Under the pieces are notes generated by a model. That model saw only the letters and a program-made list of their open reading frames with translations, was not told the origin of the DNA and did not search any database. The position numbers were made by a program, and so were the translations under genes. From Candidatus Angelobacter sp. (GTDB taxonomy: Bacteria; Acidobacteriota; Terriglobia; Terriglobales; Acidobacteriaceae), in NCBI GenBank assembly GCA_036521855.1, contig DATDGY010000085.1:87-64086 (forward strand): a stretch of DNA of 64,000 nt, written 5' to 3'. Positions 11,309-62,476 of the stretch are shown piece by piece. The number at the start of each line of letters is the position of its first letter. The stretch's first letter is position 1.

Positions 11309-12619
11309 TCAGAACGTGAACATGTCATGCAGATCGTTGCCCAACTGATTACGGGCGTTCAGCGGAGGCAGGCCGAAAGTCTCCTGAATGAAGCGCAGGA
11401 TCGAGACGTCGTCCATCTGGACATGCGAGACGTAATTGAGCTTGGCGTAGGGCGAGATCACCAGCATGGGCACGCGCGCGCCGTAGCCCTGGGCGTTAAC
11501 TTGCGGCGGGGGCACATGGTCCCACCAGCCACCGCTCGAGTCCCAGATAACGATGATGGCGGCGCCGGCCCAAACCGGCGAGGCCTGCACCTCGCGAATC
11601 AGGCTGTCGAGCCAGGCCGTGCCCGCGGATACCGGAACACCCGCCCCGGGGTGCATATCGTGCAGCGGGCCCGGTTGCATCATCACCAGAGACGGCAGTT
11701 TCCCGGCGCCAAGATCCTTCGCGAACTGGGAGAGATCACGAACGTAGGACGAAGAGTGAGCATCGCTGAAGAATTGAAACGGGTTTTCCTGGGGAATATA
11801 CCCGTTTCCGCACTGGTTGAGATTTTCCTGATACCACGCCCAAGTAAGCCCGGCCCGCACCATCTGGTCGCCCACGTGGGGAAAGCTGTAGGGCACTTTG
11901 GCCTTGGCCTGGGTGTTGCAAGGCGGATAGAAGGGCTGGATCTCGCTGGGGTTGTTGTCGTCGTCGGCGGCCACCAGGTAAAGCTGGTTGGTGGGGGCAT
12001 CGCTCATGGCGGAGGGGAAGAAGTTGTCGGCCAGGGCGAATTGCTCCGCCCAGCTCCACAGTACGGCCATGCCCGGCGTGGTGTTGTCATAGTACCCCAT
12101 GGCCACGTCGCCATTGTAGAAGGCGTACTTGTCCATTTTGCCGTGGTCCCAGAGCTTCAGGAACGTGCTGCGGCTGTGCGACAGGTCCGCAGGCGCGGTG
12201 TTCTTCAGCAGGCTCGGGGTGATGATATTGCCTTTGGAATCCTTCTGGCTGTACCCGGGCACGTTCGGATTAATGCCGTTCACTCCCGGGAACGTTCCGA
12301 AGAGGTGATCGAACGACCGGTTCTGCATGATCACCACGATCACGTTGATGATGCTGCCCTGCGGCGTGGGAGTGGGCGTTGGGGTTGGAGTGGCAGTGGG
12401 ACTCGGCGTGGGAGTTGGAGTTGGAGTTGGAGTTGGACTCGGAGTGGGCGTTGGAGTTGCTGTCGGAGTTGGCGTCGGTGTCGGAGTTGGGGTAGGTGTG
12501 GGCGTTGGGGTTGCTGGGGGATCCGGCGGCGGAGCCTGGAGTTGGTTACTGGCGCCGCCACAGCCAAAAATCAAACTCAGGCAGAGAACGCCGAGTATGA
12601 ATTGATGGGCCCGACCCAA
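11309..12619 (-). CDS. phosphoesterase family protein (phospholipase C / AcpA acid phosphatase type), predicted lipoprotein
   Basis: ORF 11309..12763. Phosphoesterase signature [15 protein letters not shown]. Start placed at TTG 12619, preceded by GGGAGGGA. Signal peptide with lipobox LIFGC, then a (Thr-Pro)n linker. Confidence 0.8.
12362..12532 (-). repeat. coding low-complexity tract: about 57 codons of Pro/Thr dipeptide repeats
   Basis: [57 protein letters not shown]. Degenerate 6-nt periodicity on the DNA. Confidence 0.9.
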
Positions 12620-12818
12620 GGTTCCCTCCCAGGTACTTTGAACCGAGTAGCCGGCCGCGGGGTTGGCTCGCCATCCGGCGGCCCGCAGCACCCGGAGTTT
12701 TCGCAAATGCGGCGCGGGGTGGCTGCGTCCCAGGCCGGTACGGGCGGAAATTTTTTGCAACAAATTTTCTTGCCGCTTGACACGCGGCGTTACAATCCAG
12801 AGTTACACCCCTAAAATT

Positions 12819-20800: not shown

Positions 20801-21385
20801 ATTGTTGCGGCCGCGCAGGCCGTTCACCCCAAATCCCACACCGCCGTTGAAGTCTGCAAAAGCGTTGTCGCGCGAGGAGGCAACGCCCGGCGCAAACAGC
20901 GCAACGTAATCCAATCCTTCGTTCGCCTCCAGGCCGGGCTGCGTGGTCAGAGTCTGGCCGGAGAAAGTGTTGGTCACCTGCGCCTGCGTGGATTCGATCA
21001 GAGGCGCAGCCGCGGTAACCTCCACCGTGGTGGTGGCGGATCCAACCGGGAGTTTAAGTGTGCCCAAACCGGTGTCATTCCCCGCGACTACGGTGATGTG
21101 GGTCTGCCGAATCGACTGGAACCCCGGAGCCTCGATTTCAATCGTGTAGTCGCCGGCCGGGATCAGGTTGAAGCGGAAGGAACCTGCGCTGTCGGTTGTG
21201 GTCGACTGCGCGTTCAACGTCGCTGTGTTGGTCGCTTTTACCTTCGCGTCTTTGATGACTGCGCCCTGTGGATCGGTGGCCGTTCCTGAAATGGAGCCTT
21301 TTAGAACCTGCCCCACCGCTATCACGGACAAGATAGCCAAACAAAGCACGACAAGGACAACGAGCCTGAAAAACCTTGGTCGCAT
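17822..21385 (-). CDS. TonB-dependent receptor-like outer-membrane protein with N-terminal carboxypeptidase regulatory-like domain (paralog 1)
   Basis: 1187 aa. Signal peptide; GSISGTATDPQGAVIKDAKVKATN (CarboxypepD_reg-like); plug/barrel-like sequence; C-terminal FGGAFRF ending in Phe. Confidence 0.9.
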   Translation of the reverse strand: MRPRFFRLVVLVVLCLAILSVIAVGQVLKGSISGTATDPQGAVIKDAKVKATNTATLNAQSTTTDSAGSFRFNLIPAGDYTIEIEAPGFQSIRQTHITVVAGNDTGLGTLKLPVGSATTTVEVTAAAPLIESTQAQVTNTFSGQTLTTQPGLEANEGLDYVALFAPGVASSRDNAFADFNGGVGFGVNGLRGRNNDQQIDGQNNNDNSVAGPSLTVTDPEWVSQYVLVTNNFGPEYGRNAGSVVNVITKQGGNQWHGSIYGYENNSVLNSMTNFQKNFAVNANGNPLTKPPRLNDEFTGVTLGGPWVKNRFFLAGGFNQQFVSTNTPFPSGAITPTPAGLTALASCFPTGASAQAVASLAKFGPFAISGGNPVPQNVTTGVVAACPQAEFGTLTRTLSTPRHVYDFFTRTDVTLNHDTFVARYIFNRNNLFSVDPGLSGAAAGYPINEPALAQAVLASWTHNFGSRMVNELRLAYGRLNVEFGGNSIGNTVPVVGQLTSALSQITFSNPAVNLGFGPINNLPQGRVVNTWQAQDNWNYVLGRHTVKAGVNWTYQQSPNVFLPNINGTFRFTDWNAFFANTPNRVQIANGVPELGFKEYDTFAYVGDDWKVNRSLTLNLGLTWTYYGKPADLLHTLTVQQQLNPATALWIAPPTLPLSVSTNPGIPGVYNSFGPSVGFAWAPQGGGMLTGHGKTVIRGGYRLSYDPPYYNIYLNVATSSPQVFLQTFSGPSVGSITMPAVPTGPNVRTLLSPFLQRGVFDPQVFNNTAIVPNFKPDQVSSWSFGIQREVAKNSAVEVRYVGNHALHLFQTVDGNPFISALQPAFPQFVPPGLTPCPATAQIGPGAGTDLGRVTCGPGVVRERTNDGFSHYNAVQAEFRANGLYNQLTLRTGYTYSKTSDNVSEIFSTAGNLGLGAGNTLAVPQNPTQPVHGEYSFSGLDYPNTFYVLGSEQLPFFREQHGWVGHILGGWAISANYLFQTGQRYTPVQASGLATLTAAGNFYDSAFLAAFNFGFDSARPFVGNLNAPETAVGIFAGDACSLFSVGCSLAPGQLISVNAINTQHGAAVAVTSNQVRFIMNGGTAQSIFGTPFGNAARNVVQDARTNIGNLAVSKSFNIKERASFEFRATCVNVLNHPNFQSVDPFLEDAGNFGAFNGFGNPHVSDTVSAVAIVPQNVATRRLIFGGAFRF

Positions 21386-21472
21386 TTCCTTATCCCCCTT
21401 ATGTCGGAGTGAAAAACCCTATACACGCAGCCGGGAACGAACTGGGGCCGCACATTGCTTGAGGATGGAGAC

Positions 21473-21488
21473 AGCAAGTGAACTGCCA
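21473..21488 (-). promoter_or_regulatory. sigma-54 (RpoN) -24/-12 promoter of paralog 1
   Basis: Minus strand TGGCAG-TTCAC-TTGCT versus consensus TGGCAC-N5-TTGCW. About 85 nt upstream of ATG 21385. Positionally conserved with 25445-25460. Confidence 0.65.
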
Positions 21489-21579
21489 CGACGCATCAGA
21501 GAGAGTTTCTCCCCTTCCATCCAGAAATTTGGAGAGGGTGAGTTCCCGGATTCCGTTTCTGGGAGCCCGAGCTGCCTGT

Positions 21580-21603
21580 CTGCAAACTCTTTCACGTTTG
21601 CAG
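21580..21603. promoter_or_regulatory. palindromic upstream site, candidate enhancer-binding-protein UAS (paralog 1)
   Basis: CTGCAAAC-N8-GTTTGCAG, centred about 105 nt upstream of the -24 element. Conserved with compensatory change at 25549-25579. Confidence 0.5.
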
Positions 21604-21735
21604 TTGGCTTCACACGGGCCGGCAATCCCGTGCACACTGACGGCAGGACCGGGCATTGCGGATGGGGCAGGAATGAGAGACTCCTGCGTCGTCGAACTAA
21701 GCCTTTAGCACAATATCTTTCTGCATCTTTCTGCC

Positions 21736-21763
21736 AAAAAAATCCGCCGGGACGGCCCGGCGG
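21736..21763 (-). terminator. Rho-independent terminator of TonB-receptor paralog 2
   Basis: Minus-strand RNA: CCGCCGGG-CCGU-CCCGGCGG followed by AUUUUUUU. Confidence 0.85.
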
Positions 21764-21792
21764 TTTAGGAGAGGAAGGAGAAACGCTTGAAG

Positions 21793-24700
21793 CTAGAATC
21801 TGAAAACGCCTCCGAAGATGAGTCGGCGGCTGGCCGAGTTAGGAAAGTTGATGGTGCCAGGGACGTTGTTGCTGACCTGGGGATTGCCAAAGCCGTTAAA
21901 CGGAGTGAAGTTGCCGGCATCCTCCACGAACGGATCGACGCTGGAGAAGTTGGGATGATTGAGGACGTTGACGCAGCTCGCCCTGAACTCGAACGAAGCT
22001 CGCTCCCTGATGTTGAAGTTCTTGGAGACGGACAGGTTGCCGATGTTGGTCCGGGCATCCTGCACAATGTTCCTGGGCATGTTGCCAAAGGGCGTACCGA
22101 AGATGGTCTGTGCTGTGCCTCCGTTCATAATGAAGCGCACCTGGTTGCTGGTAACTGGTATTGCAGCCCCATGCTGAGTGTTGATAGCGTTGACGCTGAT
22201 CAACTGGGTGGGGGAAAGTGCGCAACCCGCGCCGAAGAGCAGGCAGGCGTCACCGGCGAAGATGCCCACGGCCGTCTCCGGGGCGTTGAGGTTCCCGACG
22301 AACGGACGGGCGGTATCGATGCCGGAGTTGAACGCCGCGATGAAAGCCGAGTCATAGAAGTTTCCCGCGGCGGTCGCGTTTGCCAGTCCGCTGACCTGGG
22401 CGGGCGTGTAGCGTTGTCCGGTTTGGAAAAGGTAGTTAGCGGAGATGCCCCATCCGCCAAGGATATGGCCAGCCCAGCCGTGCTGATTCCTGAAGAATGG
22501 CAACTGCTCGCTAACCAGCGCGTAGAAAGTATTCGGGTAATCCAGGCCGGAGAACGAGTATTCCCCATGGACCGGCTGGGTTGGATTCTGCGGGAAGGCC
22601 AGAGTGTTGCCGGCGACGAACGTGCTGAAGATCTCGCTTACATTGTCCGAGGTCTTGCTGTAGGTGTAGCCGGCGCGCATCGTCAACTGTTGATACAAGC
22701 CGTTGGCGCGAACCTCAGCTTGCACGGCGTTGTAGTGGGAGTAACCGCTGTTCGTCCGCTGGCGCAGGACGCCCGGCCCGCAATTGACACGGCCCAGATC
22801 GGTGGGGGTTGGTATCCCAGTCACCGGGCTAGGTAGGAAGGGCCCCACCTGCGCTGTCGCCGGGCAAGGAGTCAGGCCGGGAGGAACAAACTGCGGGAAA
22901 GACGACTGAAGGTCGGTGATAAAGGGGTTGCCGTCCACGCTCTGGAAGAGATGCAGGGCATGGTTTCCGACATATCGTACCTCAACCACCGAGTTCTTGC
23001 TGACCTCCCGCTGGACGCCGAAAGTCCAGGAGCTGACTTGGTCGGGCTTGAAGTTGGGAACGATGGTGGTCTGATTGAAGATTTGGGGATCGAACACTCC
23101 CTTCTGGATGAAGGGAGCCAACTGCGCGCGCACGTTGGGCCCGGTAGGCGTTGCCTGCAAAGGTAATCCGGCTGCACTGGTGCCCGTGAAAGTTTGCGAA
23201 AACACCTGCGGCGCCGAAGTGGCAACGTTGAGGTAGATGTTGTAGAACGGCGGATCGTACGACAGCCGGTAGCCGCCGCGGATGACGGTCTTGCCTCGGC
23301 CAGTAAGCATCCCTCCGCGCTGCGGCGCCCAGGCGAAGCCTGCGCTCGGCCCAAAGCTGTTGTAAACGCCGGGAATGCCGGGGTTGGTGGTCACGGAAAG
23401 CGGCAGAGCCGGGTTCCAGAGCCGAGTGGCCGGATTGAGTTGTTGGTTGACGGTAATCGTATTGAGGAGGTCGGCGGGCTTGCCGTAATACGTCCAGGTC
23501 AGGCCGAGATTCAACGTCAAATTCCGAGTGGCCTTCCAGTCATCGCCCACGTACGCAAAGGTGTCATATTCCTTGAAGCCTAGCTCCGTAACTCCGTTCG
23601 CGATCGAGACGATCGACGGGGTGTTGGCAAAGAAACCATTCCAGTCGGGAAACAGGAATTGTCCATTGACGTTAGGCAGGAAGGTGTTGGGCGACTGCTG
23701 GTAGGTCCAGTTAGCGCCGAGCTTGAAGGTGTGCCGGCCCCTGACGTAATTGAAGTTGTCCTGCGCCTGCCAAGTGTTGACGAAACGGCCCTGGGGAAAG
23801 GTGTTAGCCGGTCCAAAACCTACGTTCGCCGCGGGGTTTTGAAAGGTAACGTTCGTCAGCGCATTGGTGAGTTGGCCCACCTGCGGAACCGTGTTACCGA
23901 TGGTGTTGCCGCCAAACTCGACATTCAGGCGTCCGTAAGCCAGGCGCAGCTCGTTTACCATGCGGGCGCCGATGTTGTGAGTCCAACTGGCCAGAGTGGC
24001 CTGGCTCAAAGCCGGTTCGTTGAATGGATATCCAACTGACGCACCTTGCGCGCCGTCATCCAGGTTGGAGAAATTGCTGCGGTTGTAGATATAGCGGGCC
24101 ACAAAGGTGTCATGCGACAATTGCACGTCCGCCCGGGTGTAGAAGTCATAGGCGCGGAAGGGCGTAGAGAGATTCCGGACCACGGTGCCGAATTCCGCTT
24201 GCGGGCAGGCAGTGACTACGCCGGTGGTGACGTTTTGCGCGACGGGACTGCCGCCCTTCACGGCAAACGGTCCGAACGAGCTCACAGCCGCCACAGCTTG
24301 CGCACCTGCTCCAGTCGGGAAGCAGGAAGCGAGCGCGACCAGCCCTGCTGGAGTCGGCGTAATACCCGAACTGGCAAACGGTGTGTTGGTGCTCGTGAAC
24401 TCCTGGTTAAAGGCTCCGGACAAGAAAAACTTGTTCTTGACCCAAGGACCACCGAGGGTCACGCCGGTGAATTCGTCGTTCAGCCGGGGCGGCTTGGTGA
24501 GTGGGTTTCCGTTGACGTCCACATCGAAGTTCTTCTGGAAGTTGGTCATCGCGTTGAGAACAGAGTTGTTCTCGTAGCCGTAAATGCTGCCATGCCACTG
24601 GTTGCCGCCCTGCTTGGTAAGAACGTTGACGACCGAACCGGCATTGCGTCCGTATTCCGGCCCGAAGTTGTTCGTAATCAGAACATACTGGCTGACCCAC

Positions 24701-25362
24701 TCCGGATCGGTCACGAACAAGCTGGGCCCAGCCACGCTGTTGTCATTGTTGTTCTGGCCGTCAATCTGCTGGTCATTGTTGCGTCCGCGTATGCCATTCA
24801 CGGAAAATCCCAGCCCGCCGTTGAGGTTGGAAAAGTTATTGTCGCGCGAGGGGCTTACGCCCGGTGCAAACAACGCGATGTTGTCCAGCCCTTCGTTGGC
24901 TTGCACACCGGGCTGGGCGCTTAGGGTCTGACCCGAGAAGGTGTTGGTGACCTGTGCCTGCGTGGACTCGATCAGCGGGGCAGCGGCCGTGACTTCTACC
25001 GTGGTGCTGGTATCGCCGACTTCAAGCTTGAACGAACCCAGGCCGGTATCACTGCCGGCGACAACCGTGATGTGGGTCTGCTGCAGCGTTTTGAAGCCTG
25101 GGGCCGAGATTTCGATCTTGTAGTCGCCGGCGGGAATCAGGTTGAAGCGGAAAGAACCGTTGCTGTCGGTGGTTTCGGTCCGTTCGTTCAATGTGGCTGT
25201 GTTGGTCGCCTTGACCTTCGCGTCCTTGATGACTGCGCCCTGCGGATCGGTGGCCGTTCCAGAAATGGAGCCTTTCAGAACCTGACCCACCGCCGCAACG
25301 CAGAGAATAAGTGCCAAGCTAAACGCGACAGGGATTAGAAGCCTTACAAACCTTGTGTGCAT
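21793..25362 (-). CDS. TonB-dependent receptor-like outer-membrane protein with carboxypeptidase regulatory-like domain (paralog 2)
   Basis: ORF 21793..25461. Start placed at ATG 25362 (MHTRFVRLLIPVAFSLALILCVAAVGQ) with GGAGA upstream. Roughly 75-80 percent identical by eye to paralog 1. C-terminal FGGVFRF. Confidence 0.9.
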   Translation of the reverse strand: MHTRFVRLLIPVAFSLALILCVAAVGQVLKGSISGTATDPQGAVIKDAKVKATNTATLNERTETTDSNGSFRFNLIPAGDYKIEISAPGFKTLQQTHITVVAGSDTGLGSFKLEVGDTSTTVEVTAAAPLIESTQAQVTNTFSGQTLSAQPGVQANEGLDNIALFAPGVSPSRDNNFSNLNGGLGFSVNGIRGRNNDQQIDGQNNNDNSVAGPSLFVTDPEWVSQYVLITNNFGPEYGRNAGSVVNVLTKQGGNQWHGSIYGYENNSVLNAMTNFQKNFDVDVNGNPLTKPPRLNDEFTGVTLGGPWVKNKFFLSGAFNQEFTSTNTPFASSGITPTPAGLVALASCFPTGAGAQAVAAVSSFGPFAVKGGSPVAQNVTTGVVTACPQAEFGTVVRNLSTPFRAYDFYTRADVQLSHDTFVARYIYNRSNFSNLDDGAQGASVGYPFNEPALSQATLASWTHNIGARMVNELRLAYGRLNVEFGGNTIGNTVPQVGQLTNALTNVTFQNPAANVGFGPANTFPQGRFVNTWQAQDNFNYVRGRHTFKLGANWTYQQSPNTFLPNVNGQFLFPDWNGFFANTPSIVSIANGVTELGFKEYDTFAYVGDDWKATRNLTLNLGLTWTYYGKPADLLNTITVNQQLNPATRLWNPALPLSVTTNPGIPGVYNSFGPSAGFAWAPQRGGMLTGRGKTVIRGGYRLSYDPPFYNIYLNVATSAPQVFSQTFTGTSAAGLPLQATPTGPNVRAQLAPFIQKGVFDPQIFNQTTIVPNFKPDQVSSWTFGVQREVSKNSVVEVRYVGNHALHLFQSVDGNPFITDLQSSFPQFVPPGLTPCPATAQVGPFLPSPVTGIPTPTDLGRVNCGPGVLRQRTNSGYSHYNAVQAEVRANGLYQQLTMRAGYTYSKTSDNVSEIFSTFVAGNTLAFPQNPTQPVHGEYSFSGLDYPNTFYALVSEQLPFFRNQHGWAGHILGGWGISANYLFQTGQRYTPAQVSGLANATAAGNFYDSAFIAAFNSGIDTARPFVGNLNAPETAVGIFAGDACLLFGAGCALSPTQLISVNAINTQHGAAIPVTSNQVRFIMNGGTAQTIFGTPFGNMPRNIVQDARTNIGNLSVSKNFNIRERASFEFRASCVNVLNHPNFSSVDPFVEDAGNFTPFNGFGNPQVSNNVPGTINFPNSASRRLIFGGVFRF

Positions 25363-25444
25363 TCCATTGTCTCCATTACATCGGAATAAAAGCTCTGCAG
25401 AGCCAGCCGGGGAACAATCCTGGGTCGCATTGCTCCATAGAGAA

Positions 25445-25460
25445 TGCAACTCAAGTGCCA
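25445..25460 (-). promoter_or_regulatory. sigma-54 (RpoN) -24/-12 promoter of paralog 2
   Basis: Minus strand TGGCAC-TTGAG-TTGCA, a perfect match to TGGCAC-N5-TTGCW. About 80 nt upstream of ATG 25362. Confidence 0.7.
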
Positions 25461-25548
25461 CAAGGATTCAGAGAGAGCAGCCCCTTTTCCCTCCAGAATT
25501 TTGAACATTCTGAGTGGCCCGATTCCGTTTCTTGGAACCGGAGCTGCC

Positions 25549-25579
25549 GCTCTGCAAACCCTTTCACTGCTTGCAGAGC
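25549..25579. promoter_or_regulatory. palindromic upstream site, candidate enhancer-binding-protein UAS (paralog 2)
   Basis: Minus strand GCTCTGCAAGC-AGTGAAAGG-GTTTGCAGAGC. Same spacing to the -24 element as in paralog 1. Confidence 0.5.
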
Positions 25580-25672
25580 TCTTCACACTTGGATCGGAGG
25601 TTTAATGTGAGTTCCTAAGAGGTGAGGGACGCTGTCTCGTAGACACTCAACGCCGGCGCGTCGCGGCCGCTC

Positions 25673-28600
25673 TCAAACCACGAAGTATTTTGCCTGCGGA
25701 TGATGGACCACGATCGCAGAAGTGGATTGTTCAGGCTCCATGTGGTAGCCGGTGGTCAGGCGCACGCCGATATTTTCTTCAGGTTTGAGCAACGCAAAAA
25801 TCTTGGTCTGGTCTTCCAGGTTCGGGCATGCCGGATAGCCGAAGGAATAGCGCGAGCCGCGATACTTCTGGTGGAACAGGTCGCCGACGCGGGGCGCGTC
25901 GTCGCCGGCGAAGCCCAGTTCCTCGCGCACATTTTTGTGAAACAGCTCGGCTAGCGCCTCCGCTGTCTCCACGCTCAGTCCATGCAGGTACAGGTACTTC
26001 GTGAACTCGCCGGCGTCAAACAATTTCTTGGTCTCCAGGGACGCGCGGTCGCCGATGGTAACCACAGAAACGCCGATGACATCGAATTGTCCTGACTGCT
26101 TGGGCAGAAAGAAGTCGGCGATGGAGAGCTTGCGTCCTTCGCGCTGGCGCGGGAAAGTAAAACGCTCGATCTCGGCGCCGCCCGGCGAATCGTAAAGGAC
26201 AACGTCATTGCCTTCGCTCTGGCAGGCGAAGTATCCGTAAACAACTTTTGGCTCGAACCAGCCTTTCGCCACTACCTCTCTTTGCAGATCATGAAAGATC
26301 GGAACGTACTTTTCCTCTACGAGCCGGGCATAGTCCGCTTGCGAAGCAGTTTTGAGCTGCCACTGGTTCTTGAAGAGCGCCGTGTGGTTGATGTAACCGA
26401 AGATCTCGTCCAAATCGAAGTCCTTGCGCACGCGCACCCCATAAAAAGGAGGCTTGGGAATATTGGGCGCCGCTTGCACGACCGCGGAACGCTCCGTGCT
26501 CAGCGACGCCTCTCCGCCCGAAGCGGCAACTGCCTTGGCAAACTGTTTGACTTTGCGGCCTTCCTCCAGGCGGATCTCGCGTTTCCCGTTGGCCGAAATC
26601 AGGTCGTCCATGATATGCAGGCCGGCGAAGGCATCGTCCGCATAGAACACGGAATTGGTGTACTCTCGGCGCAGATCATCTTCCACGTACTTGCGGGTGA
26701 GGGCGGCGCCGCCGCAGATCACCGGAAACTCGAGCTTCTGCGCTTCCAGGTCCTGGATAACGTACTTCATCTCCAGCGTGGACTTCACCAGCAAACCGCT
26801 GAGGCCGATGGCGTGGGCGCCGTGCTCCTGGGCCGCGGCGATAATCGTGTCCGATGGCTGCTTGATGCCAAGGTTAACTACCTTGTAACCATTGTTGCTG
26901 AGGATGATGTCCACCAGGTTCTTGCCGATGTCGTGAACATCGCCCTTCACCGTGGCCAGCACGATGGTTCCCTTCTGCGCGCCGTCTTTTTTCTCCATCT
27001 TAGGCTCAAGATAGCCGACAGCCTGCTTCATGACTCCGGCGGAATCGAGCACCGAAGGCAACTGCATCTTGCGGGCGCCAAACAGTTCGCCCACCGTCTT
27101 CATGCCGTCAAGCAGGACGTTATTGATCAAATCCAAAGGAGAGTAGGAGACAAGCGCGTCTTCCAGGATCTGCTCCAGCGATCGCCGCTGTGCGCCTTCG
27201 CCCAGTCCTTTTTCGCCGTTGATGATGCATCGCTTCAGCTTGTCTTCGACGGAGAGCGACTCCACCGGCGCGGCTTCCGTCTGCGGCTGCTGGTCGCGAC
27301 CGGTGAAGTGGGCCAGATAGGCTTGCAGCGGGTCGCCGTTCGCGCGATCAAAATAGATCAGTTTGCGCGCCAGCTCGGCTTCAGCTTCGGGAATCTTGTA
27401 CAGCGGGTAAATCTTGGCGTAGTTCACAATGGCCATATCCAGGCCATGGTCCACGGCTTCTTTCATGAACACCGAGTTCAGCACCCGCCGCGCGTACGTA
27501 TTCAGGCCGAAAGAGATGTTGCTCACGCCCAGGATGGTCTTCACCTCCGGCAGCTCCCGCTTGATCTGTTTGAGCGCGTTCAGCGTCTCGATGCCGGCGT
27601 TGCGGTATTCTTCCTGGCCCGTAGAGATGGGCAACGTCAGCGCATCAAAAATCAGGTCCACGGGGCGGATGCCGTACTTCTCCGTGGCCAGTTTGAAGAT
27701 GCGCTTGGCAATGGCGGTCTTCTTGTCGGCGGTCAGCGCCATGCCTTCTTCATCGATGGTCAGGGCAATCACCGCGGCGCCATAGCGTTTGGCCATGGGC
27801 AGGACTTTGGAAGTGCGCTTCTCGCCGTCTTCCAGGTTGATGGAATTGATGATGGCCTTCCCCGGTATTCGCTTGAGGGCTTCTTCGATGACGTCGGCCT
27901 CGGTGGAGTCAACGAGGATCGGCGCCGGCACACGGGTGGCAACCTTCTCCAGGATCGAGCTGATGTAGCCCTTCTCGTCCTCGCCCACAATGGCACAGCA
28001 GAGGTCGAGCATGTGCGAGCCTTCGTTGGCCAGCTTTTTGGCCAGGGCCAGGATGTCGTCATACTTGCCGCCCCGGACCATATTCTTGAAGTGCTCCACG
28101 CGCGTGGTGGTGTTCATTTCTTCGGCCACGATCAGGGGTTTGGGGTCCAGGTCAAGCGGCACCATGCTGTAAGCGCTGGCCGCCGCCGCCGTGACAGTTA
28201 GTTCGCGACGCGCCGGCTCCAGGTTGGCGCAGGTATCCGCGACAACCTTAATATGCGCGGGCGTGGTGCCACAGCAACCGCCCACGATGCGTACGCCGTA
28301 TTCGGTGATGAACTTCTTGTGATATTCGGCGAGATCATGCGGCGTGAGGCGGTAGTGTGCGACCCCGCCGACGTTTTCCGGCAGGCCGGCGTTGGGCAGC
28401 ACGGAGATTTCTTTCGGCGCATTGTGGGCCAGATAGCGGACGGAGTCGTTCATCTCCTTCGGCCCGGTGGCGCAGTTCAGCCCGATGATCTCGCAATCGT
28501 AGGGCTCAAGCGCTGTCTCCGCCGCGCCAATGTCGGTGCCCAGAAGCATGGTTCCCGTAGCTTCCAGCGTCACTTGCGTTTGTACTGGCAATCGCTTCCC

Positions 28601-29137
28601 TGCCTGCTTCATGGCGTCGAAGACGGCGGCCAGGGCGATCTTGGTTTGCAGAATGTCCTGTGAAGTTTCAATGAGCAAAATATCCACGCCACCAGCGATC
28701 AGGCCCAGCGCCTGTTCAAGATACGACTTCCACATCACTTCGAAGCTAGTCTGCCCGAGTGAAGGCAGCTTGGTGGTCGGCCCCATGGACCCGGCAACAA
28801 ATCGCGGCTTGCCGTTGCCGGAGAAGTCGGCGGCAACTTCCCGGGCCAGTTCCGCCGCGCGCTTGTTGATCTCGTGGACCTTATCTTGAAGAGCGAATTC
28901 ACGCAGGACCAGGCTGGTGCCGCCGAAAGTATTGGTCTCCACCACGTCGGCGCCGGCTTTGAAGTAGGCCGCATGGATGTCTTTGATCATGTCCGGGCGG
29001 CTCAAGACCAGGACTTCGGAGCAGTTCTCTTTGCCCCAGAAATCGTCGAGCGAAGGATTGCGCTCTTGAATCTGAGTGCCCATGGCGCCGTCGTAGATGA
29101 CGACGCGTTCGCGAACTGTTTCTAGAAAGGATTTCAT
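25673..29137 (-). CDS. metH: cobalamin-dependent methionine synthase
   Basis: 1154 aa. N-terminal homocysteine S-methyltransferase domain, pterin-binding domain, B12-binding motif GDVHDIGKN, and C-terminal AdoMet-activation domain. Confidence 0.95.
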   Translation of the reverse strand: MKSFLETVRERVVIYDGAMGTQIQERNPSLDDFWGKENCSEVLVLSRPDMIKDIHAAYFKAGADVVETNTFGGTSLVLREFALQDKVHEINKRAAELAREVAADFSGNGKPRFVAGSMGPTTKLPSLGQTSFEVMWKSYLEQALGLIAGGVDILLIETSQDILQTKIALAAVFDAMKQAGKRLPVQTQVTLEATGTMLLGTDIGAAETALEPYDCEIIGLNCATGPKEMNDSVRYLAHNAPKEISVLPNAGLPENVGGVAHYRLTPHDLAEYHKKFITEYGVRIVGGCCGTTPAHIKVVADTCANLEPARRELTVTAAAASAYSMVPLDLDPKPLIVAEEMNTTTRVEHFKNMVRGGKYDDILALAKKLANEGSHMLDLCCAIVGEDEKGYISSILEKVATRVPAPILVDSTEADVIEEALKRIPGKAIINSINLEDGEKRTSKVLPMAKRYGAAVIALTIDEEGMALTADKKTAIAKRIFKLATEKYGIRPVDLIFDALTLPISTGQEEYRNAGIETLNALKQIKRELPEVKTILGVSNISFGLNTYARRVLNSVFMKEAVDHGLDMAIVNYAKIYPLYKIPEAEAELARKLIYFDRANGDPLQAYLAHFTGRDQQPQTEAAPVESLSVEDKLKRCIINGEKGLGEGAQRRSLEQILEDALVSYSPLDLINNVLLDGMKTVGELFGARKMQLPSVLDSAGVMKQAVGYLEPKMEKKDGAQKGTIVLATVKGDVHDIGKNLVDIILSNNGYKVVNLGIKQPSDTIIAAAQEHGAHAIGLSGLLVKSTLEMKYVIQDLEAQKLEFPVICGGAALTRKYVEDDLRREYTNSVFYADDAFAGLHIMDDLISANGKREIRLEEGRKVKQFAKAVAASGGEASLSTERSAVVQAAPNIPKPPFYGVRVRKDFDLDEIFGYINHTALFKNQWQLKTASQADYARLVEEKYVPIFHDLQREVVAKGWFEPKVVYGYFACQSEGNDVVLYDSPGGAEIERFTFPRQREGRKLSIADFFLPKQSGQFDVIGVSVVTIGDRASLETKKLFDAGEFTKYLYLHGLSVETAEALAELFHKNVREELGFAGDDAPRVGDLFHQKYRGSRYSFGYPACPNLEDQTKIFALLKPEENIGVRLTTGYHMEPEQSTSAIVVHHPQAKYFVV

Positions 29138-52514: not shown

Positions 52515-52605
52515 CCGGTCCGCATTAAATCAGCGAAAACGAAATGACAGGTTTACAATCGTAGTCCATAGTACGCCTGTGACTTTGGTCTTGAGCGAGG
52601 ACTCC

Positions 52606-53394
52606 ATGAGCACAAAGTTGTGGAACTGGCGGTTATGGGCCGCGTTTGGTCTTAGTCTTTTGGCCCTGTTGGTCTATGTGTTCTTCTTTCGGGAAACGCG
52701 CGCAGTCTTCTGGCCGAGCTTGGCGCTTCTGGCCGCGGCTGCCGTGCTGCTGGTTTCAGGGCTGAAACTTGTCTTTCGCGACCCGCAAACGTATCGCGGC
52801 AAGATCGCGGGACCCATCCTCGCCACCCTCAGTCTCGGAGTTCTTGCGCTCTTCGGCTTCGTGAGCTATTCCGTCTTCAAGAGTTTCCCGGCCGCGCGTA
52901 ACGCGCCCAAGGTGGGCCAGAAAGCCCCGGAATTCACGCTGGCAGACATCAACGGCAATCCTGTTTCGCTGACCCAGCTACTGGCAACGCCAATCCCGGA
53001 CTCATCCGTCGCTGCACGTGCTCCAAAAGGAGTCTTGGTGGTCTTTTACCGAGGCTATTGGTGAGGCTCCTGCACCTCCGAGTTACGGGGGATTGAAAAG
53101 GCCTTGAGCTCTCTGGAAGGTTCGGGAATCCGTCCGGTAGCCATCAGCGCCGATACACCGGAAGAGTCGCGCGAGCTGTGCCGCAAAGCCGGCCTTACGT
53201 TTCCAATCTTGTCCGACCGCAGCGCAGAAGCGATTCGCCATTATGATCTCCTGGTGGCCGGGGCCGGCGAAGATGGCCGCGACATTTCCGGCACCGCGGA
53301 GTTTCTGCTGGATTCCTCCGGAACGGTCCGCTGGCGAAAAATGTACGAGACAAAGGCGGAGCACTTTGTAGAGGCAGCAAAGACACTGGATTAG
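52606..53394 (+). CDS. membrane-anchored redoxin/peroxiredoxin-like protein with in-frame TGA (53062-53064) at the first position of the CxxC motif: candidate selenoprotein, or else a pseudogene
   Basis: ORFs 52579..53064 and 53104..53394 share one frame with no other stop between them. The joined sequence reads VVFYRGYW-[TGA]-GSC-TSELRG. AhpC/TSA-redoxin-like fold follows (FPILSD, LLDSSGTV). Confidence 0.55.
53065..53103 (+). promoter_or_regulatory. SECIS-like stem-loop immediately downstream of the in-frame UGA
   Basis: Inner stem CCUCCG (53075-53080) pairs with CGGGGG (53086-53091), one G-U pair, loop AGUUA. Outer stem GGCU (53065-53068) pairs with GGCC (53100-53103). The loop G lies 18 nt after UGA. 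Confidence 0.4.
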
Positions 53395-53406
53395 CGTCCT
53401 GCAAAA

Positions 53407-56669: not shown

Positions 56670-56816
56670 CTGTCTCGCGGCCGGACACAGCAAACTTGGA
56701 TTGACATCAAACTCAATTTTCACATTACCCCAACCCTCCATTTCCGCTCGCCCCCTTGACACGTTGTGGAACAATACCCTGACGCATTTTCAAAGACATC
56801 AACAGGAGATCAGGCG

Positions 56817-57545
56817 ATGACTTCACCCTTCTTTGGGGAGTTCATGGGCACACTGGTGTTGGTTCTGCTCGGCGACGGCGTGGTGGCCGGCGTTCTGCTC
56901 AAACGTTCCAAAGTCGAAGGCAGCGGTTGGATCGTCATCACCACCGGCTGGGCTTTTGCCGTAATGGCCGGGGTTTTCACCGCCATCGCCTGCGGCAGCA
57001 AAGGCGCGTATATCAATCCCGCAGTGACGCTGGGGTTTGCCGTCTCCATTGGGGATTACCACAACGTCCTGCCGTTGATCGCTGCGCAGATGCTGGGGGC
57101 GATCGTGGGCGCGATGCTGGTATGGATACACTTCCTGCCCCACTGGCGGGAAACGCCCGACCCGTCGCTCAAGCTTGGCGTCTTTTGCACGGCTCCGGCG
57201 ATTCGCAGCGCCGGCGCCAATCTCATCAGCGAAATCATCGCTACCCTGGTGCTGGTATTCGTTGGGGCTGCCATTTTTTCGAAGACGGTCGCTGCCGTAG
57301 GCTTGGTCGGAAACATGGGACCATACCTGGTGGGCTGCCTGGTATGGGGCATCGGACTCTCCCTGGGCGGAACGACTGGCTATGCGATCAATCCTGCACG
57401 CGACCTGGGTCCGCGCATCGCCCATGCGATTCTTCCTATCGCCGGTAAAGGCGGGTCGGACTGGGGCTACGCGCCTATTCCGGTGCTGGGACCGCTGATC
57501 GGCGGTGCCATTGCCGGGGTGCTGATCCGCGTAGTGGGGTTTTAG
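56817..57545 (+). CDS. glpF: MIP family channel (aquaporin/glycerol facilitator-like)
   Basis: Start placed at ATG 56817 with AGGAGA upstream. Two NPA motifs (INPAVTLG, INPARDLG). Six TM helices. Confidence 0.85.
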   Translation: MTSPFFGEFMGTLVLVLLGDGVVAGVLLKRSKVEGSGWIVITTGWAFAVMAGVFTAIACGSKGAYINPAVTLGFAVSIGDYHNVLPLIAAQMLGAIVGAMLVWIHFLPHWRETPDPSLKLGVFCTAPAIRSAGANLISEIIATLVLVFVGAAIFSKTVAAVGLVGNMGPYLVGCLVWGIGLSLGGTTGYAINPARDLGPRIAHAILPIAGKGGSDWGYAPIPVLGPLIGGAIAGVLIRVVGF

Positions 57546-57719: not shown

Positions 57720-57971
57720 CCCAGGCCTTGCGGCCTGGGATACCCTTATGCCGCGCGTTGCGGCGCTTGCGCTTGATCGCCCTGTTTCAGAACCACGTTG
57801 CAGAGCCCCTTGCCACTATGTCACACTAAAGAGATTTGCATGACCCCAGGATCGTATCTGAGGACGGTCACAACAATTTTTTCAGCCGTCCCGCTAAAGC
57901 GGGACTCTAATTCTCGTGGACCTTGCCCCGGCACTGGCGTGCCGGGCTATTTTCATCCGTCCCTTCGGGAC
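57720..57971. repeat. cluster of five short GC-rich hairpins (REP-like) upstream of uvrB
   Basis: CCCAGGCC-TTGC-GGCCTGGG (57720-57739). GCCGC-GCGTT-GCGGC (57750-57764). GTCCCGC-TAAA-GCGGGAC (57888-57905). CCCGGCAC-TGGC-GTGCCGGG (57927-57946). GTCCC-TTC-GGGAC (57959-57971). Confidence 0.6.
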
Positions 57972-58070
57972 TGGAGCCGTGGACCAATGGCCGCGCTCGA
58001 AACATCGAGTGCCTGTCTTTTCTCCGCGCCTCCGTGTCTCCGTGGTGGATTTGCATCGTGAAGGACACTC

Positions 58071-60059
58071 ATGGACTTTCGTCTGACCAGCGACTACAAG
58101 CCTAAAGGCGACCAGGGCCACGCCATCGACGAACTCATGCGCGGCGTCTATGCCGGCGAGAAGCACCAGGTGCTGCTGGGCGTGACCGGCTCGGGCAAGA
58201 CCTACACCATGGCCAAGATGATCGAGCAGCTCAACCGGCCGGCGGTGGTGCTGGCCCATAACAAGACGCTGGCGGCGCAGCTCTACCATGAGTTCAAACA
58301 GTTCTTCCCCAACAACGCCGTCGAGTATTTCGTCTCCTATTACGACTATTACCAGCCCGAAGCCTACATTCCCGCGGGCGACGTTTATATCGAGAAAGAA
58401 GCCACGATCAATGACGAGCTGGACAAGCTGCGGCTCTCCGCCACGCGGTCGTTGTTTGAGCGGCGCGACTGCATTATCGTTGCCTCGGTAAGCTGCATCT
58501 ACGGCCTGGGCTCGCCGGAAGCCTATTACGGCATGCTGCTGTTTTTGGAAAAAGGGCAGAAGATCCGGCGCAGTGACATCGTCAGCAAGCTGGTGGAGAT
58601 CCTGTACGAGCGCAACGACGTTGACTTCAAGCGCGGGACCTTCCGCGTTCGCGGCGATATCATCGAGGTCTTTCCCACTTACGAAGACAACGCCTACCGC
58701 ATCGAGCTGTTTGGCGACGAGGTGGATTCGCTCTCCCAGATCGACCCCCTGTTCGGGACGGTCAAGCAGAAATACACGCGCCTGCCCATCTATCCCAAGA
58801 GTCATTACGTGATGCCGCAGGCGCAGAGGAACCGCGCCATGGAAACCATCCTGGAAGAGCTGGCCTGGTGGGAAAAAGAGCTGGAAAAAGAAGGCCGGCT
58901 GGTGGAGGCGCAGCGGGTGCACCAGCGCACGCGCTTCGACCTGGAGATGATCAAGTCGGTAGGCTACTGCCACGGGATCGAGAATTATTCGCGTCACTTC
59001 TCCGGACGCCTGCCCGGCGAGCCGCCGCCCACGCTGCTGGACTACGTGCCCCGCGATTTCATGATGTTCATCGACGAATCGCACCAGACCGTTCCCCAGT
59101 TGCACGGCATGTGGCACGGCGACCGTTCGCGAAAGGAAAACCTGATCCACTACGGCTTCCGCCTGCCCTCGGCGCTGGACAACCGTCCGCTGAAGTTCGA
59201 GGAGTTCGAGAACCGCGTGAACCAGGTGATTTACGTCTCGGCCACGCCCGGGCCCTACGAGCTGACGAAATCGGCCGGCGTGGTGGTGGAGCAGATCATC
59301 CGGCCCACCGGGCTGGTGGACCCCGAAGTCGAGGTCCGGCCGGTGAAGGGGCAGATTGACGACCTGCTGCACGAGATTCGCGACCGCGCCAAGAAAGGCG
59401 AGCGCGTGCTGGTTACCACGCTCACCAAGCGCATGGCCGAGGACCTGGCCGAGTATTACAGCGAGGTTGGGGTGCGCTGCCGCTACATGCATTCGGAGAT
59501 CGAGACCCTGGAGCGCATCAAGCTGCTGCGCGATCTGCGCCGCGGCGAGTACGACGTGCTGATTGGCATCAACCTGCTGCGCGAAGGCCTGGACCTGCCC
59601 GAGGTCTCGCTGGTCGCTGTGCTTGACGCCGACAAAGAAGGATTTTTGCGCTCCGGCGGTTCGCTCATCCAGACCGTGGGCCGCTGTGCCCGCAACGTGA
59701 ATGGTCGCGCCATCCTGTACGCCGACCGTATGACCGACTCCATGCAGCGGGCCATGGATGAAACCGACCGCCGCCGCGCCATCCAGCGGGCCTACAACCA
59801 GGAGCATGGAATCATTCCCCAGACCATCATCCGGCCGGTAGCCATGTCCTTGGCCGGCATCGCCGAAGCCGACTACGTGGATATGATCGATGCCGCCGAT
59901 GGGCTGCCCGACTTCAAATCACAGGAGGAGCTGGACAAGTACATCACCGGGTTAGAGACCGACATGCGTGAGGCGGCTAAGAGATTCGAGTTCGAGAAAG
60001 CGGCCAAGCTGCGCGACACCGTGCGCGAGCTGCGGACCAAAGAATTCCTGTTCACCTAA
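58071..60059 (+). CDS. uvrB: excinuclease ABC subunit B
   Basis: 662 aa. Walker [11 protein letters not shown], helicase motifs, C-terminal UVR domain ([15 protein letters not shown]). Confidence 0.97.
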
Positions 60060-60520: not shown

Positions 60521-62476
60521 ATGCTTGCAGCCTGTCTCTTACTACTGATTGCCGCGATGAGCGGAACACTGCTCACGTTTCTCTATGACCGGCCCGCGCC
60601 GTTCGCCGCGCGCCTGTGCATGGGCGCCAGCGCCGGCCTGGTGCTGCTGGCCGCGATCGGGTTTCTCTTTGCGTTGTGGCTGGGTCTGGGCGCAGCCTGC
60701 GTTGGATTGACCACCGCGGTGATGCTTCTGCCACTACTTCTACTGGTGCGCAAGCCGTTCCGCGCGTGGGTGGCCCGTGAAATCAGGCTCGCCGCCCGGA
60801 CCGCGGCCAATGCCTTGCGCCATCCGAGCTCATATACCATTGCCTGTCTTGTTTTCTATATCGGCATGGCCATTTTGCTGGGCGTGGTGTTTGGCCAGGC
60901 GGCCTACGAGAACTCTGACGGCATTTTTACCGGCGCGAGAAACAACCTGGGCGACCTGACGCTTCACCTGCAGGTGATCAACAGTTTCGCCCAGGGCCAC
61001 AACTTTCCTCCGCAAGATCCCACCTATGCGGGCGTGCGCTTTGCTTATCCATTTCTCGTGGATTTTCTGGCGGCCATGCTGGCGCGGGTGGGCGCGGGAG
61101 TCATCGGCGCCATGTGGATCGAGAATATGGTATTGGTCCTGGCGCTGGTGGGCATGATCCATTACTGGACGCTGCTGCTCACGCGCAGCCGCCTGGCCGG
61201 GCTGATCGCACCCGCGCTGGTGATCTTCAGCGGAGGCCTGGGATGGACATGGATTCTCCAGGAAATCCACGCCACCTCCGATGGGCTCTTTCCCATGCTG
61301 GCGCATCTGCCGCACGACTACACCATCATGGATCTCCCCGGCATTCTCCGCTGGGGCAACTCGGTGACCACGCTGTTTGTGACCCAGCGCAGCATCTTGT
61401 TTGGCATGCCGCTGGCCATCTGCATCTTCTGCTGGTGGTGGAAATCGATTGCCGGCACCCGCGATGAAGCCATTCATGAAAGCCCCACCCGGCGCATGAC
61501 GGCCGCGGGCTTCTTCGCCGGGCTGCTGCCTTTGACTCACGCGCATACGTTTCTGGTGGTGATGGGCGTCGGGGTATGCCTGGCACTGCTCTTCCCCAGA
61601 TTGTGGAAGAATTGGCTGCGCTTTTTCGTGTTGGCCGGCATCGTTGCCCTGCCACAGCTGCTATGGCTGGGACGCGCCGGCGGCGTCCACGTGCAAAGTT
61701 TTGTGGCCTGGCAACCAGGATGGGACCACGGCGTCTATAATCCCGCGCTGTTTTGGCTGGTGAACACCGGGCTGTTCATTCCGCTGCTGATCGTCGCTTT
61801 GTTCTGGCCACCCCCGAACGCTTTGCCCAAGCGTGTGCTGATGTTCTATGCGCCGTTCCTGCTTTGCTTCATCGTCCCTAATCTCATCAGGCTGGCGCCG
61901 TGGGTCTGGGACAACATCAAGGTTCTCATTTACTGGTACGTGGCTTCGGCGCCGCTGGTGGCGTGGGTATTGGCCCGCTGGCTGACGCAGAAGTCCGCCT
62001 CGCGCTGGCTTGCCGCGGGCGCCCTTGCCGCCATGTTGCTCTCCGGTGCGCTGGACATTTTCCGTATCGCCAGCGGCCAGACCGCATACCGGGAGTTCGA
62101 CAACGACGGCATCACCATCGCCAGTGCGATATCCGAGCACGCGCCGCCCCGCGCGGTTGTTCTGCATGCACCTACCTTCTACTCTCCCGTCTTTCTCACG
62201 GGAAGGCCTTCGCTGCTGGGTTATCCTGGATGGATAGCGTCGCGGGGACTGGATTCCTTTCAGCGCGAATCCGACATCCGGCACATGTACGCCGGAGCAC
62301 CCGACGCGGACGCGCTCCTGGAGCGCTATGGAGTGGAGTACGTGCTCATCAGCCCCGCGGAACTGACGACGATGAAAGTTGACCCGAGGTTCTGGTCGAG
62401 TTACTCGCGGGTGGCGCAGATCGGTCAGTATCGTTTGTACCGGACCAACGTTGTCGAAGAAAGGGCTCCACGATGA
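60521..62476 (+). CDS. large polytopic membrane protein, possible GT-C-type glycosyltransferase
   Basis: 651 aa, more than 12 predicted TM helices, C-terminal soluble part. The stop overlaps the pfk start (ATGA). No specific family confidently recognised. Confidence 0.6.
   Translation: MLAACLLLLIAAMSGTLLTFLYDRPAPFAARLCMGASAGLVLLAAIGFLFALWLGLGAACVGLTTAVMLLPLLLLVRKPFRAWVAREIRLAARTAANALRHPSSYTIACLVFYIGMAILLGVVFGQAAYENSDGIFTGARNNLGDLTLHLQVINSFAQGHNFPPQDPTYAGVRFAYPFLVDFLAAMLARVGAGVIGAMWIENMVLVLALVGMIHYWTLLLTRSRLAGLIAPALVIFSGGLGWTWILQEIHATSDGLFPMLAHLPHDYTIMDLPGILRWGNSVTTLFVTQRSILFGMPLAICIFCWWWKSIAGTRDEAIHESPTRRMTAAGFFAGLLPLTHAHTFLVVMGVGVCLALLFPRLWKNWLRFFVLAGIVALPQLLWLGRAGGVHVQSFVAWQPGWDHGVYNPALFWLVNTGLFIPLLIVALFWPPPNALPKRVLMFYAPFLLCFIVPNLIRLAPWVWDNIKVLIYWYVASAPLVAWVLARWLTQKSASRWLAAGALAAMLLSGALDIFRIASGQTAYREFDNDGITIASAISEHAPPRAVVLHAPTFYSPVFLTGRPSLLGYPGWIASRGLDSFQRESDIRHMYAGAPDADALLERYGVEYVLISPAELTTMKVDPRFWSSYSRVAQIGQYRLYRTNVVEERAPR

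Follow-up and report, generated by a model that had tools for sequence, protein, structure and literature searches.

The closest described relatives of the gene reported here are the peroxiredoxin-like (Prx-like) thiol:disulfide oxidoreductase selenoproteins ('Prx-like 1', PF00578, with UxxC or UxxU active sites, U being selenocysteine, Sec), which have been catalogued in surveys of 2005-2008 and in Table 1 of a 2026 review; selenoproteins have also been reported in Acidobacteria. In the Prx-like 1 class, Sec is the first residue of UxxC, the selenocysteine insertion sequence (SECIS) lies in the coding sequence right downstream, and there are many Cys homologues. The gene that we compare with them lies in a 64,000-nucleotide (nt) stretch of Candidatus Angelobacter sp. 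(contig DATDGY010000085.1, positions 87 to 64,086), hereafter the window, in which 52606..53394 is very probably a single selenoprotein gene whose UGA at 53062-64 is decoded as Sec via a bacterial SECIS inside the coding sequence.

Judged by domain, motif and description, with the exemplar WP_010940744.1 standing outside the comparison, the gene is best placed in this known class, all of whose traits listed above it shares; in the class as in the window gene, function is a prediction. The original prediction for this locus had already invoked Prx-like UxxC proteins as a known class of bacterial selenoproteins, in line with the published surveys. What sets the window gene apart from the class is an N-terminal three-helix anchor, a domain that is probably exported, a near-exclusive use of Sec (found in 82 close relatives, with Cys in 1) and an occurrence in soil Acidobacteriota and Verrucomicrobiota, whereas the class comes from Deltaproteobacteria or marine samples.

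Reading frame, internal TGA and conservation

According to the original prediction, two open reading frames (ORFs), 52579..53064 and 53104..53394, lie in the same frame and are parted by the TGA at 53062-53064 alone. Translation of 52579-53397 agrees, giving this TGA as the sole internal stop, in the context ...VVFYRGYW*GSCTSELRGIEKAL... or, over a longer stretch, ...KGVLVVFYRGYW*GSCTSELRGIEKAL... (the DNA around 53062 reads TTT TAC CGA GGC TAT TGG TGA GGC TCC TGC ACC TCC GAG TTA CGG GGG ATT). Homologues start at the ATG at 52606 (MSTKLWNW...) and not at the GTG at 52579; the gene is therefore 52606..53394, with the following two features at its centre.

52606..53394, + strand: putative selenoprotein coding sequence, 262 codons including Sec153, with the stop codon TAG at 53392-53394
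53062..53064, + strand: in-frame TGA, the putative codon of Sec153, first position of W-U-G-S-C

Relatives were collected by a genome scan with one genome per species (185,579 species), which gave at least 439 relatives; the best 80 were kept, each from a different species genome. Together with the JGI contig L001 and the window they form the Sec-type set (n = 82), and the addition of the Cys form L002 gives the family set (n = 83). The comparison shows one conserved frame with TGA at the identical column in 82/82 Sec-type sequences, down to 44% identity, within the family motif FYRG[YF]W-U-P-x-C-N-S-E-L-R-[GS] (in its broader form, FYRG[YF]W-U-x-x-C-x-[SL]-E-[LF]-R-[GS]). Among the best 80 relatives, the Acidobacteriota contribute 38 Pyrinomonadaceae/Blastocatellia, 17 Terriglobia, 12 unspecified members, 1 Thermoanaerobaculia and 1 Polarisedimenticolia; the others are 6 Verrucomicrobiota (including Udaeobacter, and several on contigs of 0.2-1.2 Mb), 1 Dormibacterota, 1 member of the Limnocylindrales (Chloroflexota) and 3 further bacteria. 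The TGA-carrying relatives span at least three phyla. A scan of all conserved TGA-interrupted frames in these loci recovered only the redoxin family; other TGA-interrupted clusters were considered as selenoprotein genes and rejected, being adjacent genes or shadow frames.

The same picture emerges from protein databases, in which the family appears largely in pieces. More than 70 of 120 listed database proteins (59-82% identity) end at 151-156 residues, mostly at 152. An exhaustive HMMER search with the Cys-form protein P0024 against 1.84 billion cluster representatives (50%-identity clusters) gave 6,936 matches, and among the best 150, which were examined, 49 are N-terminal fragments whose last residues are precisely ...FYRGxW and many are C-terminal fragments beginning just past the motif.

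Homologues also show what else can occupy the TGA column. A close relative, P0024 (loci L002-L004), has TGC there, in the motif CIMC, and a neighbour-joining tree nests it, at a depth of 8 nodes, among Pyrinomonadaceae Sec forms, to which it is 66-68% identical; judged from this position, P0024 looks like a replacement of Sec by Cys. Among more distant relatives, 39 of the best 150 representatives read FYRGxW-C-P-x-C, and several Cys forms (P0139, P0147, P0150, P0167) have the same three-helix N-terminus. The claim that the TGA stands at the CxxC position of a redoxin, giving U-G-S-C, is thus backed by Cys homologues as well as by a Pfam AhpC-TSA match, and the comparison of this column that it called for gives TGA in the Sec-type set, with Cys in the nested L002 and in these distant representatives. 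The ratio of Sec to Cys among close relatives is 82:1; that Sec is kept in 82/83 of them argues that Cys is a poor substitute here.

Two further observations concern this column. A sister group (P0121-P0123) has the same three-helix anchor with an active site F-x-M-x-x-G-C-x-A-C and always carries Cys. In two proteins, P0169 and P0177, the Sec position is occupied by Arg (YW-R-PHC) or by Leu (YW-L-GSC); such residues may reflect genuine substitutions, errors in sequencing or unusual translations.

Downstream of the TGA, the ratio of nonsynonymous to synonymous substitution rates (dN/dS) is 0.04-0.17, with dS saturated; this part of the gene is therefore translated and under purifying selection. 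The value bears directly on the alternative named in the original prediction, a recent nonsense mutation in which TGC or TGT of a Cys-type redoxin became TGA and left the downstream ORF to decay as a pseudogene. Such a history would fit the two ORFs of the public annotation and the unexceptional energy, taken alone, of the hairpin described below, but it is excluded by the downstream dN/dS and contradicted by a TGA at the same column in homologues of several phyla and by a nucleotide-level constraint centred on the hairpin; a variant with one recently spread clone is ruled out by the saturated dS. We give the pseudogene virtually no chance of being the right explanation.

An assembly error can be excluded, because the TGA is conserved across homologues and because a second assembly (Logan, run ERR4661006) is base-for-base the same over 53020-53130, the TGA included. 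A changed genetic code, with UGA read as Trp or Gly, was ruled out as well: TGA is the terminal stop of 8/18 Pfam-supported genes in the window and internal in none of them, so the standard code applies.

The gene is misread in public databases on a large scale. In the public annotation it is split into a 152-residue 'hypothetical protein' and a 96-residue AhpC-TSA fragment, the former 100% identical to NCBI VI488_06740 (Candidatus Angelobacter sp., Terriglobia, Acidobacteriota; labelled "hypothetical protein"), which confirms the acidobacterial host that the original prediction had inferred. Calls by JGI/IMG on short contigs (L001:205-990; proteins P0001, P0003-P0006, P0009 and others) instead put Trp at the Sec TGA (YW-W-xxC) and label the product 'peroxiredoxin'. 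These 'full-length' Trp entries are genetic-code-4 calls, since the DNA of L001, which underlies one of them, reads TGA at this place; apparently the JGI gene caller picked code 4 for those short contigs, a systematic annotation artefact that hides selenoproteins. The signature FYRG[YF]W-TGA-6 nt-TGY-NNC-TCC-GAG-TTR-CGG can be used to correct the entries.

A hairpin constrained at the RNA level

Immediately 3' of the TGA lies the candidate SECIS, for which two nested elements can be given.

53075-53091, + strand: putative SECIS core hairpin, stem CCUCCG/CGGGGG, apical loop AGUUA at 53081-53085
53065..53103, + strand: putative extended SECIS stem-loop, with GGCU 53065-68 paired to GGCC 53100-03 and CA 53073-74 to UG 53094-95

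The coordinates that the original prediction gave for the core hairpin hold, including a loop G (53082) 18 nt after the A of UGA; the stem begins 11 nt past the UGA. Its outer GGCU/GGCC stem stands only in part, being present in the minimum-energy fold of the window (-14.6 kcal/mol, 53065-53106) and specific to the window: the sequence of the lower stem is not conserved in the family, and the alignment fold retains the 5-base-pair (bp) core alone. This family-conserved core consists of five pairs, 53076-80 with 53086-90 (CUCCG-AGUUR-CGGRG).

Comparison across the family shows that the hairpin is maintained at the level of RNA. In an ungapped 48-nt alignment (A3), the five core pairs form in 82/82 Sec-type sequences and loop positions 1-4 (A-G-U-U) are invariant in all of them, and shifting the 3' arm by 1-3 nt lowers pairing from 92% to 39-61%. 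Four loci (L057, L078-L080) read CCUCG...CGAGG for CUCCG...CGGAG, so that two adjacent pairs are changed on both sides (U-A to C-G and C-G to U-A). Judged from the alignment, synonymous-codon usage is a stronger argument for an RNA constraint than this covariation. Counted from the Sec codon, the entropy of synonymous codons is 0 at +4 (AAC, 63/63), +5 (TCC, 78/78) and +6 (GAG, 82/82) and 0.28 at +8 (CGG in 78 and CGA in 4, the latter solely with the compensating change), while Leu at +7 is encoded by TTA or TTG alone, though CTG dominates elsewhere. Other conserved codons of the gene have 0.6-2.5 bits, mostly 1-2.5, and the Arg of FYRGYW is found in all six of its codons.

Cys-type sequences provide the counterpart. 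Phycisphaerae Cys relatives with the same peptide, CPFCVSELRG, use TCG/TCG/TCT, GAA/GAG/GAG, TTA/CTG/CTG and CGC, with which the hairpin cannot form, and L002, the nested Cys form, has CTT for this Leu, which alters the loop. The expectation that the hairpin goes with TGA forms only is thereby borne out: it pairs in every Sec-type sequence and cannot form in Cys relatives that encode the same peptide with other codons. A single copy of the 15-nt SECIS motif is present in the window and in each of 73 matching loci, always in the redoxin gene.

The original prediction had also held that the geometry matches bacterial SECIS elements, and it does so in loop, stem, position of the G, spacing and energy when set against the consensus model of Zhang and Gladyshev, as summarised in PMC13188914.

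Apical loop: 3-9 nt in the model, 5 nt (AGUUR) here
Upper stem: 4-16 bp in the model, 5 bp in every sequence, extended to 6 bp in the window
Loop sequence: a G in the first two loop bases, usually followed by G or U, in the model; G at position 2, followed by U, here
Distance from UGA to loop: 16-37 nt in the model, 16 nt (53065-53080), the lower limit, here
Folding energy: -7.5 kcal/mol or lower in the model; -14.6 for the extended element (42 nt) and -9.1 for the core (19 nt) here, with 76/83 family members passing the threshold

Like the SECIS elements of the E. coli fdhF/fdnG type, the hairpin is a stem-loop in the coding sequence right after the UGA, with a small apical loop containing GU at a distance within 16-37 nt. 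It differs from known bacterial elements in its 5-bp stem, its minimal spacing of 16 nt, a sequence that is near-invariant across phyla and the lack of an Rfam match.

A hairpin after a stop codon might also act as a pause or attenuation signal, with true termination at the UGA yielding a 152-residue membrane protein and the redoxin part made from an internal start or never made at all. ORF finders do offer TTG at 53104 as an internal start, and many assemblies have C-terminal fragments annotated as genes. These internal starts are, however, not conserved, and the fragments begin variously within the SECIS region; a separate C-terminal product would be devoid of the UxxC motif and of the preceding beta-strands and hence would not be a folding unit, and Cys-type relatives of the same architecture are single polypeptides. 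We consider termination very improbable and return to read-through as Sec, for which the product can be examined as one protein.

Active site, fold and predicted membrane anchor of the read-through product

With Cys placed at the stop, the read-through protein matches Pfam AhpC-TSA (PF00578) at 6e-23, with 81.6 bits against a cut-off of 26, and Redoxin (PF08534) at 6e-16; the two matches together span residues 102-250. The features of the product, beyond Sec153, are as follows.

52639..52689, + strand: predicted transmembrane (TM) helix 1, residues 12-28, without K, R, D or E in 83/83 sequences; helix 8-30 in the P0024 model
52711..52764, + strand: predicted TM helix 2, residues 36-53; helix 39-59 in the P0024 model
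52813..52878, + strand: predicted TM helix 3, residues 70-91; helix 68-98 in the P0024 model
52912..53334, + strand: AhpC/TSA (peroxiredoxin-fold) redoxin domain, residues 103-243, the PF00578 match
53071..53073, + strand: codon TGC of Cys156, second residue of UxxC (putatively resolving), invariant in 83/83
53293..53295, + strand: codon of Thr230 at the cis-proline position, which is Pro in 78/83 members and lost in the window's small clade

The best match by sequence in the Protein Data Bank is AhpE of M. tuberculosis (2.5e-8); BCP proteins match too, and ResA structures do so at 6e-6. An AlphaFold2 model of the Cys form P0024, not of the window protein itself, reaches a predicted local distance difference test (pLDDT) score of 83.7 and shows a peroxiredoxin fold with CxxC at a helix N-terminus; in Foldseek this Cys-form model has a TM-score (template-modelling score) of 0.89-0.91 to AhpE and Bcp4. 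In the alignment with AhpE, Sec153 stands opposite the Thr of T-x-x-C, and Cys156 opposite the peroxidatic Cys. The original prediction, which had put Sec at the 'resolving/nucleophilic' Cys, was therefore right that it replaces the attacking, N-terminal Cys of CxxC, but this column is that of the peroxiredoxin Thr, and it is C156 that corresponds to the peroxidatic Cys. The protein lacks the peroxiredoxin signature: an invariant Arg149 stands where PxxxTxxC has Pro, Sec153 stands where it has Thr, and the column of the catalytic Arg, which coincides with the cis-Pro position of thioredoxin-fold oxidoreductases, has Pro (78/83, in R-P-A-E-F-L-x-D) or Thr. The combination of W-[C/U]-P-x-C with a cis-Pro is a signature of thiol:disulfide oxidoreductases. 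The name 'Prx-like thiol:disulfide oxidoreductase' fits the protein, because it has the peroxiredoxin fold, has lost the peroxiredoxin signature and carries W-[C/U]-P-x-C together with cis-Pro at the level of the family.

Several described families invite comparison with this protein. With AhpE/BCP (PrxQ) peroxiredoxins it shares the best sequence and structure matches (2.5e-8; TM-score about 0.9) and, in Cys156, the peroxidatic column, but the P...T..C/Arg catalytic signature is lost. TlpA, ResA and CcmG resemble it in a W-C-x-x-C-type site at a helix N-terminus, in the R-P-A-E-F cis-Pro (78/83) and, probably, in being anchored with an exported domain; they differ in having one TM helix and not three and Cys where the present family has Sec as the attacking residue. 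The fold of the present family is nearer to AhpE and BCP peroxiredoxins than to ResA, and the window protein in addition has Thr at the cis-Pro position and no cytochrome-maturation genes nearby. In PrxU (TxxU), Sec is at the peroxidatic position, whereas here it is at the Thr position (UxxC). The tetrapeptide of the window is literally the U-G-S-C of the UGSC-containing family NF041046, yet UGSC is peculiar to the window's small clade. Against the NCBIfam models, the read-through protein scores 32.5 bits for SelL_rel_redox (NF040769; cut-off 120), 18.3 for PrxU (cut-off 270) and 51.1 for ResA (NF002854; cut-off 170), each below its cut-off, and it has no match to NF041046 at E <= 0.01. Membership in the UGSC-containing, PrxU, SelL-related or ResA families was accordingly rejected.

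Within the family, the window belongs to a small clade (8 sequences) that has U-G-S-C, with Gly154 at 53065-53067, instead of U-P-x-C. The cis-Pro is replaced by Thr, Ile or Ser in four members of this clade (the window, L005, L006 and L007) and also in the JGI contig L001, and the window reads G-T-A-E-F where the family reads R-P-A-E-F.

The chemistry may differ from that of an oxidoreductase, in that a Sec peroxidase at the surface of the membrane might reduce H2O2 or lipid hydroperoxides via a selenenic acid. The nearest solved structures are all peroxiredoxins (AhpE, Bcp4, PrxQ), databases name the Cys relatives 'peroxiredoxin', and some relatives adjoin MIP channels, DinB or genes for extracytoplasmic function (ECF) sigma factors, YCII and DoxX, which is suggestive of stress responses. 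Against a peroxidase speak the absent catalytic signature (Arg for Pro, Sec for Thr, and Pro in 78/83 or Thr for Arg), the thiol:disulfide oxidoreductase signature of W-C-P-x-C with cis-Pro, and the PrxU score of 18 against 270. On balance we find a selenoprotein with peroxidase chemistry somewhat unlikely, though a serious contender.

The three N-terminal TM helices of the original prediction are supported by segments that contain no K, R, D or E in the window protein and hardly any across the family, and by the helices of the Cys-form P0024 model. Averaged over the 83 sequences, the N-terminus has 2.1 K and R residues, loop 1 has 1.0 (offset by 0.9 acidic residues), loop 2 (residues 54-69) has 4.9 and the 15 residues past helix 3 have 2.6. 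By the positive-inside rule, these family-level charges would place loop 2 in the cytoplasm and the redoxin domain outside; the counts of the window protein taken alone are ambiguous for topology. Shorter Cys relatives have lipoboxes or cleavable signal peptides, in keeping with export of the domain. The charge pattern thus suggests that the redoxin domain most likely faces the periplasm, in an N-in/domain-out arrangement.

For the oxidoreductase, we propose the following mechanism. The stem-loop with the AGUUA loop inside the coding sequence would direct Sec to UGA 53062-64, acting as a bacterial SECIS that recruits SelB carrying Sec-tRNA(Sec), and the three TM helices would anchor the product in the cytoplasmic membrane. 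Sec153 would replace the attacking Cys of a CxxC thiol:disulfide oxidoreductase, with Cys156 as the resolving residue. In the putative cycle, the selenolate attacks an oxidised substrate, which may be a disulfide or a sulfenic acid or peroxide; Cys156 then resolves the intermediate, forming an intramolecular Se-S bond, and some reductant of the envelope would regenerate the enzyme.

Weight of the evidence, genomic surroundings and implications

A number of results weigh against this proposal or parts of it. The hairpin of the window folds no better than expected from its composition (z = -1.33, with 23/200 shuffles folding equally well), nor does the surrounding 70-nt stretch (z = 0.14), and folding energy was dropped as evidence for that reason; that the hairpin is more than a chance structure follows from the comparative evidence, not from energy. 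The conserved stem has just 5 bp, with the minimum spacing that the SECIS model allows. A search of 53040-53140 against Rfam matched no SECIS family and returned only CRISPR-DR47, a chance match (E = 7.5). The covariation is probably a single event, because essentially one clade supplies it. Part of the S-E-L-R-G peptide is kept in Cys relatives for protein reasons, so that constraint on RNA and on protein can be told apart solely by synonymous sites. In the window's small clade, Thr230 and Gly154 replace both Pro residues of the active site, so that the chemistry or active-site geometry of this clade may depart from that of the other members. No conserved gene neighbourhood was found across 82 loci, and none of the neighbours suggests itself as the reductant. 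Finally, in the window and 84 related loci (about 1.3 Mb), ARAGORN found no tRNA-Sec, and tblastn with E. coli SelA, SelB and SelD found no selA, selB or selD.

This last result bears on the possibility that the UGA is read through as something other than Sec: as Cys by a tRNA-Sec-like tRNA(Cys) and a SelB paralogue, as Ser or another residue by an allo-tRNA, or by near-cognate read-through. Stop-suppressing allo-tRNAs have been described in Acidobacteria and a tRNA-Sec-like tRNA(Cys) in Firmicutes, Thermodesulfobacteria, Nitrospirae and Proteobacteria, which are other phyla, and the Sec machinery of this metagenome-assembled genome (MAG) is unconfirmed, the window and the related loci being without it. 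Yet the hairpin fits the SelB-type SECIS model in loop, position of the G and spacing; the recoded site is the attacking Cys of CxxC, a classic position of exchange between Cys and Sec; at least three phyla share the signal, while allo-tRNAs and selC* are lineage-restricted; a general suppressor needs no conserved local hairpin; and TGA is the normal stop of neighbouring genes. We keep a small probability for such read-through, because suppressor-like acidobacterial tRNAs are known and the machinery of the MAG is unconfirmed, and hold decoding as Sec to be by far the better explanation.

The gene is set in an ordinary chromosomal region that holds no selenium-related gene. Its upstream neighbours encode a Rieske ring-hydroxylating oxygenase together with two amine oxidases; on the downstream side, a convergently oriented gene for a fused E1 dehydrogenase, which ends in TGA, is followed by a MIP channel, uvrB and phosphofructokinase. 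A conserved neighbourhood was considered as a clue to function and set aside as weak, since lineages differ: genes for an ECF sigma factor (DUF6596), YCII and DoxX_2 are each found in 15-23/82 loci and are absent from the window. In Pyrinomonadaceae-type loci and at the Cys form, they make up a cluster with glyoxalase, DUF1428 and sometimes DinB (L002:6120-11167; for example also L036:2165-3592, L050:7792-8316 and L038:1325-1780), whose composition suggests a stress regulon. MIP channels occur immediately 3' of Cys-type Phycisphaerae relatives (L089:1116-1419; L090:1099-1389) and, in the window clade only, 3.5-4 kb 3' of the selenoprotein gene (window 56766-57545, + strand, and the two closest relatives, L005:8477-9226 and L006:14546-15319), which may reflect a functional link, through transport of peroxide or a metalloid, or coincidence.

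Other features of these contigs are recorded for completeness.

8825-12814, + strand: ORF of 1329 residues without a Pfam match at E <= 1e-4
17822-29137, - strand: three consecutive ORFs of about 1150-1220 residues, of which 17822-21385, the one tested, encodes CarboxypepD_reg and an OMP_b-brl_4 outer-membrane barrel; the arrangement suggests a tandem array of TonB-dependent-like receptors
57927-57972, + strand: Acido-Lenti-1 RNA (RF01687), scoring 57.2 bits (cut-off 37) and lying some 100 nt 5' of uvrB (58071-60059)
60521-62476, + strand: ORF of 651 residues without a Pfam match at E <= 1e-4
L022:926-1314, - strand: transfer-messenger RNA (tag ANSNELALAA), about 2.3 kb upstream of the selenoprotein gene on one Pyrinomonadaceae contig

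Beyond the single gene, the relatives may constitute an undescribed family that is widespread in soil, made up of membrane-anchored, extracytoplasmic UxxC selenoproteins that hardly ever use Cys and share one near-invariant SECIS read by the SelB proteins of several phyla (Acidobacteriota, Verrucomicrobiota including Udaeobacter, Dormibacterota and Chloroflexota). The literature searched contains no description of this specific membrane-anchored family, the published exemplar sequences standing outside our comparison. We put this wider proposal forward tentatively, as somewhat less likely than not.

Acidobacteriota and Verrucomicrobiota dominate soils, and to our knowledge their use of selenium has hardly been described. 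The gene adds a membrane-anchored and probably periplasmic Sec enzyme to the selenoproteome of both phyla, and its very short, near-invariant SECIS offers a handy minimal element for studying recognition by SelB beyond Proteobacteria and Firmicutes. If the relatives are indeed an undescribed soil family, the gene would have spread between phyla along with its recoding signal, and some of the most abundant bacteria in soil would need selenium for a redox function of their envelope.

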